Shown here: one piece after another, positions 7,585 to 16,268 of the stretch
Position numbering within the stretch: position 1 is the first letter of the stretch
Layout of the letters: the number at the start of each line of letters is the position of its first letter
Origin: a bacterium
GTDB taxonomy: Bacteria; Zhuqueibacterota; Zhuqueibacteria; Zhuqueibacterales; Zhuqueibacteraceae
Reading direction: 5' to 3'
NCBI GenBank assembly: GCA_044869275.1
Contig: JBIOXB010000109.1
Span: forward strand, 1 to 22,146
Length of the DNA stretch: 22,146 nucleotides
Program-made: the position numbers and the translations under genes
Notes under the pieces: generated by a model
What the model was told of the DNA's origin: nothing
Database searches by the model: none
The model's input: the letters and a program-made list of their open reading frames with translations, nothing else

Positions 7585-7680
7585 GATGGAGAACGGGGGA
7601 TTGAGGATAGAGGATCGAAAATCGAGAATTGCATTCAGGATGCTTTTGTCAACACGATCTTCTATCCTCGATTCTCAATC
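7585..7680. repeat. inverted array of degenerate heptamers (RATNGAG)
   Basis: Left arm GATGGAG AACGGGG GATTGAG GATAGAG GATCGAA AATCGAG (7585-7626). Right arm CACGATC TTCTATC CTCGATT CTCAATC (7653-7680) consists of reverse-complement units. Confidence 0.8.
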
Positions 7681-7705
7681 TTCAAGACAAAAATATGGTG
7701 CTCTC

Positions 7706-8473
7706 GTGCGTGTTCATTTCCCCTCGCGGGACAAAATCCGCAGCAGCTTGGCCCAACTTGCGGAGGGCGTGCTGTCATTGGTCTATCCCCCGCAGTGTGC
7801 CGCTTGTCTGAAGTGTGAACAAGCTCCTTCCTGCCGTTTTCTTTGTGAAGATTGCTTGGCCCGCGTGATCCGAGCTGAAATTCCCGCAGTACGCTTGTGG
7901 CAAAATGTGGAGGAAATCGCTCCGGGAAGGCGCGCTTGTGCATGCGATCTTGCGGCATGGTTTTATGAGGACAGCATGATGGCACTCATTCCGCGTATGA
8001 AATATCAGAACCGCCCAGCCATTGCAAGAGTTTTTGCCGAAATTGCCGCCGCGCGTCTAGGAGAACTGGTAAATACGGTTTTATCTTCTGCTGCAAAAGC
8101 GGCACCGGTCTTGGTGCCTGTGCCCCTGCATTCCCGCCGCCAAAGAGAACGCGGCTACAATCAAAGCTGGTTGATCGCTCGTACCTTCAGCAGGGAATGG
8201 AAGTTTGAAATGCAGACTTGGGCGTTGCGGCGGACGCGCTTCACGCGGTCGCAGGCTAAACTCAACGCCGCCGAGCGCGTGAAAAATGTGCGCGATGTCT
8301 TTGCAGCAGCCCGTGTCGAAAAACTTTCCGGAAGAACGGTGCTTCTGGTCGATGATGTGATCACCACCGGCGCGACGGTTGCATCGTGTGCGGGGACTCT
8401 ACTGCAAGCCGGCGTTTCACAAGTGATCGCCGTGGCGCTGGCGCGCGCAGGGCGGGATTTGATGTTGATGTGA
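7706..8473 (+). CDS. comF: ComF family protein (zinc ribbon + phosphoribosyltransferase-like domain)
   Basis: VYPPQCAAC...LCEDC, VPVPLH..R.RERGYNQS, LLVDDVITTGAT. Start uncertain; GTG 7706 chosen because 7586-7705 runs through the heptamer repeat. Confidence 0.88.
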   Translation: MRVHFPSRDKIRSSLAQLAEGVLSLVYPPQCAACLKCEQAPSCRFLCEDCLARVIRAEIPAVRLWQNVEEIAPGRRACACDLAAWFYEDSMMALIPRMKYQNRPAIARVFAEIAAARLGELVNTVLSSAAKAAPVLVPVPLHSRRQRERGYNQSWLIARTFSREWKFEMQTWALRRTRFTRSQAKLNAAERVKNVRDVFAAARVEKLSGRTVLLVDDVITTGATVASCAGTLLQAGVSQVIAVALARAGRDLMLM

Positions 8474-8562
8474 AAATATAATCGTTACGCCGGATCATGC
8501 GAGCCGCCGATACAATATCGATCCAAACCCGGCGAATAAAGAATGTAGATATAATAGCCCAC
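8469..8562 (-). pseudogene. 5' fragment of a GIY-YIG nuclease copy
   Basis: Reads VGYYIYILYSPGLDRYCIGGSHDPA*RLYFH. Premature TAA at 8485-8487; similarity to the intact copy ends at the comF stop codon. Confidence 0.85.
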
Positions 8563-8580
8563 CCTGCCCTCCAAAACAAA

Positions 8581-8605
8581 GAAACCCAGATTCATCCTGG
8601 GTTTC
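8581..8605 (-). terminator. intrinsic terminator-like hairpin (repeat copy)
   Basis: Minus strand GAAACCCAG-GATGAAT-CTGGGTTTC followed by TTTGTTTT. Confidence 0.65.
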
Positions 8606-8609
8606 ACCT

Positions 8610-8673
8610 TGGCTCCCGAGGCAGGACTTGAACCTGCATCCCGAAGCTTCGGGATAACAGCCGCCCGCTCTGC
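8610..8673 (-). pseudogene. tRNA-Asn-derived fragment (D-stem 3' half to CCA) with palindrome substitution
   Basis: GCAGAGCGGGCGGCTGTT-ATCCCGAAGCTTCGGGAT-GCAGGTTCAAGTCCTGCCTCGGGAGCCA; palindrome at 8638-8655. Confidence 0.85.
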
Positions 8674-8937
8674 TCAAATCTGCCCTTCCAACTCTCCCCG
8701 AATTACCTTACCTATCAATTCTCTACTTTTTTGCCGCTTCAACCAGCGCTCCAGTCTTTGTGCTTCAGCTTTCGTGGCCAGTGCTTTCGAAAAAACCATT
8801 TGCCACGGGCGACCGCGCTGCGTCCAACCTTTACGCGAAGTATTGTGAAAATGCAATCGTTGTGCCGGATCATGCGAGCTGCCGATATAATATCGATCCA
8901 AACTCGGCGAATACAGAATGTAGATATAATAGCCCAC
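8674..8937 (-). CDS. stand-alone GIY-YIG nuclease (UPF0213/SLX1-like), 87 aa
   Basis: YYIYILYS..LDRYYIGSS.D...RL..HN.....WT..GRPW..V.......AEA..LE..LK. GTG start at 8937 with GGAGG upstream. The TGA stop directly abuts the tRNA fragment. Confidence 0.92.
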   Translation of the reverse strand: MGYYIYILYSPSLDRYYIGSSHDPAQRLHFHNTSRKGWTQRGRPWQMVFSKALATKAEAQRLERWLKRQKSRELIGKVIRGELEGQI

Positions 8938-8955
8938 CCTGCCCTCCAAAACAAA

Positions 8956-8982
8956 GAAACCCAGATTCATCCTGAGTTTTTC
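8956..8982 (-). terminator. terminator-like hairpin, weakened variant
   Basis: Minus strand GAAAAACTCAG-GATGAAT-CTGGGTTTC-TTTGTTTT; carries a C>T change and 2 extra A relative to the other two copies. Confidence 0.55.
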
Positions 8983-8986
8983 ACCT

Positions 8987-9050
8987 TGGCTCCCGAGGCA
9001 GGACTTAAACCTGCATCCCGAAGCTTCGGGATAACAGCCGCCGGCTCTGC
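8987..9050 (-). pseudogene. tRNA-Asn-derived fragment with palindrome substitution
   Basis: Same as 8610-8673 apart from two substitutions (including T-loop TTC>TTT); palindrome at 9015-9032. Confidence 0.85.
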
Positions 9051-9103
9051 TCAAATCTGCCCCACCCAGCGAATATACAATGCAGATAGAATAGCCAGTC
9101 CAC
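9051..9103 (-). pseudogene. internally deleted GIY-YIG copy
   Basis: Degenerate 5' end (GYSICIVYS vs GYYIYILYS) joined directly to the 3' end GGGCAGATTTGA of the intact gene. Confidence 0.75.
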
Positions 9104-9121
9104 CCTGACCTCCAAAACAAA

Positions 9122-9146
9122 GAAACCCAGATTCATCCTGGGTTTC
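9122..9146 (-). terminator. intrinsic terminator after tRNA-Asn
   Basis: 9-bp stem GAAACCCAG/CTGGGTTTC plus T-rich tail, 4 nt after the CCA. Confidence 0.7.
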
Positions 9147-9150
9147 ACCT

Positions 9151-9226
9151 TGGCTCCCGAGGCAGGACTTGAACCTGCAACCTAGTGGTTAACAGCCACC
9201 CGCTCTGCCGGTTGAGCTACTCGGGA
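9151..9226 (-). tRNA. tRNA-Asn(GTT)
   Basis: 76-nt cloverleaf: acceptor TCCCGAG/CTCGGGA, anticodon arm GGTGG-CTGTTAA-CCACT, T arm GCAGG-TTCAAGT-CCTGC, encoded CCA. Confidence 0.97.
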
Positions 9227-9274
9227 GTAGCTATCTCTCTTGAAATCTTCTTAGCGTCATTCTTACTGCGTTCT

Positions 9275-9338
9275 TTGAACCTGCATCCCGAAGCTTCGGG
9301 ATAACAGCCACCCGCTCTGCCGGTTGAGCTACTCCGGA
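9275..9338 (-). pseudogene. 5' tRNA-Asn-derived copy with palindrome substitution, 3' end missing
   Basis: TCCGGAGTAGCTCAACCGGCAGAGCGGGTGGCTGTT-ATCCCGAAGCTTCGGGAT-GCAGGTTCAA, then similarity stops; palindrome at 9285-9302. Confidence 0.85.
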
Positions 9339-9351
9339 ATATACAAATCTA

Positions 9352-9381
9352 ATAATACGACAACTTACCACAAAAAGTCAA
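9352..9381 (-). promoter_or_regulatory. putative sigma70 promoter of the tRNA-Asn locus
   Basis: Minus strand TTGACT (9381-9376)-18 nt-TATTAT (9357-9352), 13 nt upstream of the first tRNA-like copy. Confidence 0.65.
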
Positions 9382-10058: not shown

Positions 10059-10154
10059 GGGAATGGATGGGAGCCTGGTGGCCTCCGCGGTCTTCAAAAC
10101 CGTTGCTCCGCCATACACATGGCGGAGGGTGAGTTCGATTCTCACACGTTCCCG
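10059..10154 (+). tRNA. selC: tRNA-Sec(TCA)
   Basis: Anticodon arm GCGGT-CTTCAAA-ACCGT (TCA at 10094-10096), extended D stem around TGGT, long variable arm CTCCGCCAT/ATGGCGGAG, T arm GTGAG-TTCGATT-CTCAC, 8-position acceptor stem, discriminator G. Confidence 0.93.
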
Positions 10155-10388
10155 CTCATTTTCCTTCATGCACAATTCCGTAATTTGCCGCGCCCAGCCG
10201 TACAAGCTTGTGATTGCCGGCCTCCATTCACCCCTGACCCTACGGTAAATAATTGTTAGTACCACATAGCAAATCACTTGCACCAGATTCATCGGACCAT
10301 ACTAAGTGCGGTCAAAACAGTATTGAATAAGATCGCTTGACCGTAAAAGCTAATGATCGCCAGGTCCAAAAAGTTGGCTTTGAGTTTT

Positions 10389-16113: not shown

Positions 16114-16268
16114 TACTCCTCCACTATAAAAGCAAAAACCCCGATTCCAAGACCGGCACGAACACGAGGCCATTACGTGCGCGAAATCGCGCACGGCGTC
16201 ACGTTGCGTGCAGACCTTGCAACCGGGGTCAGGCGGCTATCCCGCCCAAGCGGGATTACACGAGAGGT
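16114..16268 (-). other. structured intergenic region at the usual 6S RNA (ssrS) position
   Basis: Lies between zapA and rny and contains several hairpins (ATCCCGC/GCGGGAT, CGTGCGCGA/TCGCGCACG). A canonical 6S rod could not be confirmed by eye. Confidence 0.35.

Follow-up and report, generated by a model that had tools for sequence, protein, structure and literature searches.

The 22,146-nucleotide (nt) stretch of DNA analysed here (contig JBIOXB010000109.1 of assembly GCA_044869275.1, a member of the Zhuqueibacteraceae; hereafter the window) carries a short tandem array in which the gene for a predicted GIY-YIG nuclease of 87 residues lies among partial, hairpin-bearing copies of a tRNA-Asn gene. 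Coordinates are positions in the window, and the array is read on the minus strand throughout; the window's genome (6.67 Mb) is called G000, a second genome of the same genus, the congener, G001, fetched loci carry L-numbers and contigs of G000 carry C-numbers. The array is headed by a sigma-70-like promoter (TTGACT, 18 nt, TATTAT; 9352..9381) that is homologous to the promoter ahead of tRNA-Asn in the congener (locus L076). Next come a 5' fragment of tRNA-Asn (9275..9338), composed of tRNA positions 1-37, a first copy of a palindrome (9285..9302) and the first 10 bases of the T arm, a 48-nt spacer for which no similarity was found (9227..9274), and an intact tRNA-Asn(GTT) gene (9151..9226; Rfam tRNA, 68.6 bits) that is 100% identical to the tRNA-Asn of the congener. 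Behind this intact gene follow 2.3 units, each made of a terminator, the GIY-YIG gene and a 3' tRNA fragment. The first unit has a terminator-like hairpin with a T tract (9122..9146), an internally deleted and out-of-frame GIY-YIG remnant in which the first ~12 codons are fused to the last ~4 (9051..9103), and a 3' tRNA-Asn fragment that runs from position 19 to CCA, with the palindrome (9015-9032) in place of positions 38-48 (8987..9050). The second has a weakened copy of the terminator-like hairpin (8957..8979), the intact 87-amino-acid (aa) gene with a GTG start and GGAGGG upstream (8674..8937), and a second 3' fragment (8610..8673) with its palindrome at 8638-8655. The last consists of a third terminator-like hairpin (8581..8605) and a truncated GIY-YIG copy (8471..8562) that reaches a TAA at 8487-8485 after 25 codons and whose homology ends at the stop codon of a comF-like phosphoribosyltransferase gene, which is convergent with the array (7586..8473, plus strand).

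The stop codon TGA of the nuclease directly abuts GCAGAGC, which is tRNA position 19, at 8674/8673 and again at 9051/9050, and because this junction recurs the unit can be set at 377 bp; successive repeats are spaced 375-377 bp apart, with 93-98% identity between copies. The initial annotation, a reading of the letters by a model, had described this order of elements, the 377-bp unit and its reused boundary, and all of them are found where it placed them. It had also described the tRNA copies as disrupted by a palindrome, which holds for all three, with the amendment that the disruption is a substitution and not a plain insertion: tRNA positions 38-48 (11 bases, the 3' strand of the anticodon stem and the variable loop) are swapped for 17 bases in every one of the three fragments, and these 17 bases together with an A of the anticodon loop form the perfect 18-nt palindrome ATCCCGAAGCTTCGGGAT. 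Similarly, the first nuclease copy is deleted and the third is truncated with a TAA as it had reported, but the first is out of frame with its own stop and the third ends at the junction with the comF stop codon. None of the 11 large open reading frames of the window encodes an integrase, transposase or reverse transcriptase, again in agreement with that annotation, and the sole gene of the insert is the GIY-YIG gene. No second copy of the cassette was found in G000, where the other matches are three distant small GIY-YIG genes.

The array is no assembly artefact. Four public runs (X1-X4) were read as assembled contigs, with depths taken as unitig depths. In run X1 the two flanks have depths of 11.2 and 14.3 and the repeated pieces reach 28-46, against 12.1 for the part of the nuclease gene that is present once; these values agree with a single intact gene alongside three or four copies of the segment formed by the 3' part of the tRNA and the terminator. 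Parts of the array are also present in runs X2-X4, and each copy bears its own point changes. Run X4, from another study, contains a strain 93-96% identical to ours in which comF position 8468 is joined to nuclease-gene position 8717 with six other letters between them, so that the far end of the array varies between strains; tandem arrays recur elsewhere (see below). In the nuclease gene, nine of the 13 listed differences from the X4 strain are synonymous, and the remaining four changed positions fall in three codons (I18V, Q46E and R61S), a pattern which suggests that the gene is maintained by purifying selection.

The 87-aa protein matches Pfam PF01541 (GIY-YIG) with an E value of 1.7e-15 over residues 3-72 and stops 15 residues past the catalytic domain. 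Its score against T5orf172 is 18.9, under the cut-off of 20, and no NCBIfam family matches it. Seventeen residues are invariant in 18 homologues (Y6, I7, L8, Y9, S10, Y17, G19, R27, L28, H31, N32, P44, W45, A59, E63, K67 and K70), and we equate the conserved Tyr, Arg and Glu with the catalytic residues of I-TevI and UvrC. The AlphaFold model (predicted local distance difference test 93.5) depicts a single compact, bare catalytic domain. By sequence, the nearest solved structures are the UPF0213 proteins 1zg2 (E 3.7e-11) and 1ywl (1e-10), with Slx1 at 1e-6 to 1e-4; the top 10 Foldseek matches are all UPF0213, Slx1 or HIGLE, with UvrC and I-TevI far behind. The nearest solved relatives are thus the UPF0213 proteins BH0048 and EF2693 and Slx1, the latter at TM scores of 0.6-0.66, a root-mean-square deviation of 2.3 A and 30-34% identity. 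Sequence and predicted fold agree in identifying an Slx1/UPF0213-like catalytic domain that lacks a classical homing-endonuclease DNA-binding domain. Slx1 itself carries a RING/PHD domain and needs Slx4, and we know of no link of Slx1 or the UPF0213 proteins BH0048 and EF2693 to tRNA genes or to private hairpin repeats. The window protein shares with Seg-type enzymes the conserved Tyr/Arg/Glu GIY-YIG domain and a presence/absence polymorphism at tRNA-Asn among relatives; however, Seg enzymes and I-TevI carry added DNA-binding domains that give site specificity, SegB being a larger multi-domain protein, whereas the window protein has no such addition. A profile built from seven close relatives retrieves 9030 representative proteins at E<=1e-3, 1425 at 1e-10 and four at 1e-30 among 1.84 billion. 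Several database proteins of ~205-214 aa (P0023, P0034 and P0053) contain two GIY-YIG stretches; these are probably tandem units that gene callers have read through the tRNA fragment.

To place the locus among its relatives, 40 genomes of the same class as G000 were considered and 29 of their tRNA-Asn loci were fetched. Twenty-seven of the 29 loci are bare, two hold a different GIY-YIG subfamily whose different hairpin replaces the 5' strand of the anticodon stem, and the window-type cassette occurs at none of them. The congener offers a clean empty site, with an identical tRNA-Asn, the same promoter (TTGACT...TATATT) and a terminator directly after the tRNA; no fragment, hairpin or nuclease gene is found at this tRNA-Asn. 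Since in the window the native promoter precedes the 5' fragment, this fragment occupies the native position of the tRNA. The initial annotation had suggested looking for an empty comF-tRNA-Asn site; the tRNA-Asn site is empty in 27 of 29 cases, as just described, but its pairing with comF is not conserved. A conserved comF-tRNA-Asn site was rejected, for none of the 19 comF loci of the relatives holds any tRNA. In the congener a lipoprotein-like gene stands on one side of the tRNA-Asn and a lipA-like gene on the other, and the orientation of the tRNA with respect to the lipoprotein gene is opposite to that in G000; the lipA-like gene (L076:1622-2518) has its homologue at the very start of a G000 contig (C230:1), which begins within it. 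The inversion and the lack of comF conservation place the cassette locus at a rearrangement point, or synteny break. Within the window, the DNA outside the array holds housekeeping genes, and a tRNA-SeC(TCA) gene lies at 10059-10155, 830 bases upstream of the tRNA-Asn locus and on the opposite strand.

The same package is present in distant phyla. A search of species-representative genomes with the protein (as a 7-sequence alignment) returned 16 loci, at which ARAGORN places a tRNA-Asn beside the gene in nine cases, a tRNA-Met in one and no tRNA in six. By BLAST and motif, the junction between tRNA-Asn and hairpin, TGTTATCC(C/G)...GG(G/A)A(T/C), occurs in 12 of the 16 loci, in the layout GGCTGTTAT, CCCG, about six bases, CGGGA(T/C) and T arm, and the hairpin is intact in 11 of these 12, being decayed in L012. 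The hosts of the junction loci are Calditrichota, Fidelibacterota/Marinimicrobia, one Candidatus Brocadia metagenome-assembled genome (MAG) and unclassified MAGs. Ten of the 16 loci lie within ~450 bases of a contig end, as expected because repeats break assemblies. Two forms of the fragment can be distinguished: a 3' form (from about position 19-27 to the 3' end) placed directly after the stop codon of the nuclease, and a 5' form (from position 1 into the T arm, of which it includes the first half) placed upstream, where it precedes the intact tRNA in the window, L004 and L010 and the nuclease gene in L014 and L016. The substituted segment of the tRNA is identical in every fragment.

Tandem units are found in L005, L007, L011 and L017. 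In L017, from a Bacteroidota MAG, a tRNA-Met(CAT) is followed by six tandem units of 352 bp (L017:126-2320), each consisting of a terminator, a related GIY-YIG gene and a hairpin-substituted tRNA-Met fragment with a hairpin of its own. L011 holds a composite array behind one tRNA-Asn (L011:1300-2320), with two copies of another GIY-YIG subfamily, the open reading frames of which end within the copy of the tRNA D arm (hairpin TCCGGCGGCTGCCGGA), and then one copy of the window subfamily. Behind this window-type (subfamily-A) gene, the T arm and acceptor strand of the fragment do not match those of the resident tRNA-Asn, and therefore the fragment can travel with the gene.

Scanning of metagenome contigs for the junction motif gave at least 120 matching stretches, and 80 of the matches listed were fetched. 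We counted as tRNA-type those in which the hairpin is followed by a T arm, and set the others aside before counting associations. Forty-five of the 80 fetched are tRNA-type, so that there are at least 45 metagenome loci; among these 45 of the matches listed, 39 have a GIY-YIG gene on the same strand within 700 bases and eight have two or more near-full copies. The other 35 of the 80 matches listed stand in non-tRNA-type contexts, and a GIY-YIG gene is present in five of them. About 13 of these 35, again among the matches listed, form one unrelated family, a leader hairpin before a gene that begins MNQQPDKITALYCRL; this family contains GGCTGTTATCCCG...CGGGA (L116, L129, L131, L142, L144, L162, L164, L165, L171, L172, L174 and L188). 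The nuclease subfamily is thus tied across phyla to duplicated, palindrome-bearing tRNA-Asn segments, an association that the initial annotation had proposed to look for, and the presence of the package in distant phyla and at 45 or more metagenome loci shows that this is no isolated duplication. Indeed, that the array is either a unique local duplication or an assembly error is extremely improbable. The contig-end position of ten of the 16 related loci does show that such regions assemble poorly, but the window's copies carry distinct mutations, the unitig depths fit the assembled copy numbers, and the design recurs in dozens of unrelated assemblies.

The phylogeny of 46 small GIY-YIG proteins, from which five partial or near-duplicate rows were dropped and in which group labels were set from locus context (L006 and L030 by similarity only), agrees with these associations. 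The 13 rows with tRNA-Asn and the ATCCCG hairpin form one clade (support 100/99) that unites Calditrichota, Fidelibacterota, Planctomycetota and G000; the tRNA-Lys rows form another (100/98), and three tRNA-Pro rows a third (100/100). All tRNA-linked rows fall on one side of a branch supported at 94/91 (27 rows), and the 19 rows across this branch, which include the three other small GIY-YIG genes of G000, contain none that is tRNA-linked. The tRNA-linked side also includes two rows away from any tRNA, L032 (L032:1-300, reverse strand) and L033 (L033:1480-1790); these follow a gene resembling that of a formylglycine-generating enzyme and are enclosed by short direct repeats (…ACCCTGTGA…). Among the best GIY-YIG loci of the relatives, nine of 29 adjoin a tRNA (Asn, Met, Pro or Lys), and all nine show partial tRNA copies in which a GC-rich hairpin replaces part of the tRNA.

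The pattern of substitutions indicates that selection maintains the hairpin as a hairpin. In 15 distinct junction sequences 97.5% of the cells are paired, and the two inner pairs covary (A-U, C-G and U-A), with 10 cells changed on both sides; the observed covariation score was reached by none of 500 shuffles, and sliding the partner by one column lowers the pairing to 31-59%. The 45 metagenome loci among the matches listed have 31 different inner sequences, nearly all self-complementary. The initial annotation had not noticed that the palindrome extends beyond the tRNA copies: the pattern ATCCCG-N4-8-CGGGAT has 113 copies in G000, against none for the reversed pattern, and a further hairpin of this type, ATCCCGCCCAAGCGGGAT, lies elsewhere in the window (16239..16256). 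The flanks of these 113 copies are GTC...CTT in 62, GTC on both sides in seven, GTC with another 3' flank in two and TTC...GAA in 18, the remainder being the three tRNA fragments of the window and singletons; GTC thus stands immediately 5' of the hairpin in 71 of 113 copies. New in this analysis is the finding that copies of the palindrome are scattered through the genome, where their GTC...C flanks follow a grammar resembling that of the NTS/SRM repeats discussed below.

The covariation bears on the possibility that the tRNA pieces act as RNA, either as a 3' element that processes or stabilises the nuclease mRNA or as a tRNA-like decoy, with the repeats kept for that role. Covariation fits RNA as well as DNA, and the 3' fragments keep the T arm, the 3' strand of the acceptor, CCA and then a terminator. 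However, these fragments lack the 5' strand of the acceptor and therefore have no acceptor helix, no fragment is recognised by Rfam as a tRNA at E values of up to 1, 5' fragments that share this core lie upstream of the tRNA, and the same hairpin recurs in more than 100 unrelated contexts. We regard a role as RNA as very improbable.

The spread of the hairpin correlates with the presence of the nuclease. The oriented motif GTCATCCCG-N4-8-CGGGATC (GTC-hairpin-C) occurs 63 times in G000, not at all in the congener G001 and 0-9 times in the 39 other relatives, and among these 41 genomes the window nuclease subfamily is confined to G000. Five other genomes that carry the subfamily have 8-39 hairpins each, and their controls none. 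The dispersed hairpins are often paired in inverted orientation. Many of those in G000 lie within a ~130-bp element that resembles a miniature inverted-repeat transposable element (MITE), with inverted ends TTGACAATGTTAAGTT and two hairpin slots arranged as GTC[hairpin]CTTCCC ... GGGAAG[hairpin]GAC (for example C163:5744-5890 and C200:15869-16015). This MITE-like element is also present in the congener, where its end motif has 103 matches against 77 in G000. Slot 1 holds ATGCTGTAAGCAT in all six congener copies read (L109-L114) and an ATCCCG-type hairpin in many G000 copies, so the hairpin module looks to have been swapped inside a conserved element.

The nearest known parallel to this arrangement is Ssn (cd10448), a group of single-domain GIY-YIG proteins that, according to the accessible text of Chenal et al. 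2025, Nat Commun, cut only single-stranded DNA (ssDNA) beside a hairpin repeat, NTS/SRM, which flanks the ssn gene and is scattered through the genome, the SRM form being more degenerate (PMC11893778). The same text reports that for SsnA of Neisseria meningitidis cutting depends above all on the three bases that adjoin the palindrome on its 5' side and binding on the C that directly follows it, and it likens NTS-ssnA-NTS to an insertion sequence (PMC11893778). The likeness to the window is considerable. Both are single-domain GIY-YIG proteins of about 90 residues (~90-110 in the family, 87 here); the window gene (8937-8674) is bracketed by its hairpin at 9015-9032 and 8638-8655; further copies of this hairpin, numbering from tens to hundreds, are scattered across the genome; and the dispersed copies share GTC, A-T-(T)-C-C-C-G...C-G-G-G-(A)-A-T and C. 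On the other hand, the gene-side hairpins of the window are embedded in partial tRNA-Asn copies and flanked by GTT...G, and the window protein groups with tRNA-linked nucleases, apart from the NTS-flanked paralogues of G000; the word tRNA is absent from the main text of Chenal et al. 2025 (PMC11893778).

G000 holds four small GIY-YIG genes in all, and the three others (C33:35390-35644, C53:30316-30552 and C98:22155-22382) are each flanked by a different GTCA-hairpin of their own. The flanks of the C33 gene agree with the NTS published for Neisseria at 27 of 28 positions, and 44 NTS-like sites occur in G000; the window protein is 33% identical to this NTS-flanked paralogue, and the 94/91 branch lies between them. 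One may ask whether the window gene encodes an Ssn-like nuclease that the host has domesticated to act on dispersed hairpins, for example in restricting incoming ssDNA; recombination, to which hairpins are prone, would then have produced its position at tRNA-Asn and its duplication only incidentally. The presence of four small GIY-YIG genes with a separate hairpin family for each, the NTS match of C33, a competence-related gene (comF) adjoining the array and the apparent purifying selection on the gene all fit such a role. We nonetheless judge it improbable, since the exact tRNA-Asn/hairpin junction is shared across phyla with the gene, the cassette is missing from 27 of the 29 tRNA-Asn loci of relatives, the gene in L011 is accompanied by a foreign T arm and the comF adjacency is not conserved (0 of 19 loci).

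A second parallel comes from phages. As described in the available part of Chihara et al. 2026, SegB is a free-standing GIY-YIG homing endonuclease encoded in the tRNA gene cluster of T-even phages; segB is enriched near the tRNAs of phages, and the enzyme drives the tandem amplification of tRNA plus segB through microhomology (PMC13096335). The window array resembles this system, as far as that text describes it, in having a GIY-YIG gene among tRNA genes and tandem tRNA-plus-nuclease amplification through short homologies, and differs in that SegB is phage-borne and without hairpin-substituted tRNA fragments. A free-standing homing endonuclease of this type would cut double-stranded tRNA-Asn DNA near the anticodon stem, double-strand-break repair would copy the cassette, and the palindrome would be an immunity scar. 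The GIY-YIG domain, the position beside a tRNA with presence/absence polymorphism, the identical substituted segment in every fragment, as for a destroyed target, and the precedent of SegB in its available description (PMC13096335) all speak for homing. The evidence on the other side is that the protein is a bare catalytic domain of 87 residues without a DNA-binding domain and scores below the T5orf172 cut-off (18.9 vs 20), that an immunity scar need be neither a conserved, covarying hairpin nor spread to more than 100 sites, and that the intact tRNA beside the gene would remain cleavable. Homing in this sense seems to us unlikely.

Other known systems share single traits with the array. The REP/BIME-RAYT and IS200/IS605 systems also combine small scattered hairpins, often in inverted pairs, with one dedicated hairpin-flanked nuclease gene, but the window enzyme is a hydrolytic GIY-YIG protein and not an HUH/Y1 transposase, of which there is none in the window. 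In integrase islands, too, an intact tRNA and a partial copy (attL/attR) delimit the insert, as set out in the available text of bioRxiv 10.1101/2022.07.05.498093; the window insert differs in being only ~0.3 kb, in having no integrase, in the hairpin alteration of its partial copy and in having fragments on both sides of the tRNA and in tandem. Slx1 and UPF0213 proteins provide the best sequence and fold matches. The tRNA-nested arrangement is not described in the accessible text of the 2006 GIY-YIG survey (PMC1564403) or of the paper on partial tRNA genes (bioRxiv 10.1101/2022.07.05.498093), and, the Ssn and SegB supplements aside, we found no published description in the full-text literature of small GIY-YIG genes set within tRNA fragments that have part of their sequence replaced by a hairpin. 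The cassette shares the grammar of Ssn and the traits of free-standing GIY-YIG genes at the side of tRNAs, and is a proven member of neither group.

Taken together, the anatomy of the locus, its recurrence across phyla, its patchiness, the tandem arrays, the covariation and the co-occurrence of nuclease and hairpin favour a selfish cassette. Our preferred interpretation, which we consider on balance probable, if only just, is that the window carries a horizontally acquired predicted nuclease and hairpin nested in tRNA-Asn, and that this cassette would insert itself and multiply by homologous recombination through its tRNA-derived arms. The minimal one-gene selfish element on a tRNA gene envisaged in the initial annotation fits this picture in its recurrence, empty sites, tandem arrays and strain differences. 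The nuclease would be the cognate partner of the hairpin, probably cutting or nicking ssDNA beside it as Ssn does at NTS. The mobile unit may be a circularly permuted tRNA segment, with the T arm and 3' strand of the acceptor first, then the terminator, the gene, the D arm with the 5' strand of the anticodon stem, and the hairpin. One crossover in the T-arm/acceptor region of the resident tRNA-Asn, through integration of a circle or through break repair, would yield an intact tRNA, the gene and a hairpin-bearing 3' fragment, which is the observed layout, and a crossover in the 5' half would yield the mirror layout of L014 and L016. The tRNA is nearly identical across phyla and can therefore serve as a portable homology arm, with the host keeping a working tRNA. 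Unequal exchange between the ~130-bp direct repeats formed by the 3' part of the tRNA and the terminator, perhaps stimulated by the nuclease, would make and unmake tandem copies. Through such exchange and excision, arrays could grow, decay (as in the deleted and truncated copies seen here) and differ between strains, and the same activity might place copies of the hairpin in GTC...C slots at other genomic sites.

Several observations weigh against this interpretation. GIY-YIG enzymes hydrolyse DNA and cannot join strands, and insertion must therefore rely on host recombination. The array has a sole intact nuclease gene and its copies are just 93-98% alike, so that the duplication is not recent. 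Terminator-like hairpins separate the tRNA from every nuclease gene, and expression of the nuclease would therefore need read-through. The gene-side hairpins are flanked by GTT...G and the dispersed copies by GTC...C, a discrepancy that counts because, in the accessible description of SsnA, the flank positions are those that matter most (PMC11893778); moreover, the published SRM search motif overlaps none of the 113 window-type hairpins. The 94/91 branch separates the tRNA-linked nucleases from the NTS-flanked paralogues, which makes it doubtful that the former belong to Ssn proper, and two of the 27 rows on the tRNA-linked side (L032 and L033) lie away from any tRNA. The link between hairpin spread and nuclease is a correlation drawn from one within-genus contrast and the counts in five genomes. 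No carrier between phyla was found, and the two peptide patterns used retrieved no relative from viral contigs.

Beyond this locus, we tentatively raise a more general possibility, to which we assign a lower likelihood than to the interpretation of the window itself: that tRNA-nested GIY-YIG cassettes are a distinct and widespread class of minimal mobile elements, in which a bare, predicted hairpin-specific nuclease of 85-90 residues would use tRNA genes as universal arms and safe harbours in moving between phyla and would then overwrite the hairpin slots of the genome with its own recognition hairpin. If this is true, one enzyme of 87 residues and one hairpin of 18 bases would be among the smallest self-propagating genetic units in bacteria, and a near-universal tRNA sequence would be exploited to enter unrelated genomes while the tRNA is left unbroken. 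It would also provide a route to repeat proliferation by a hydrolytic nuclease, separate from transposases and integrases, and would link the hairpin-specific ssDNA nucleases of the Ssn group with tandem amplification at tRNA genes of the kind driven by SegB. Such cassettes would account for the fragmentation of metagenome assemblies at tRNA loci and for the partial tRNA genes found in annotations, and they may point to new ssDNA nucleases that are specific for a sequence or structure, each with sites of its own. The two congeners, set apart by the nuclease and by over 60 copies of the hairpin, represent a natural experiment that could show how REP-like repeats spread.

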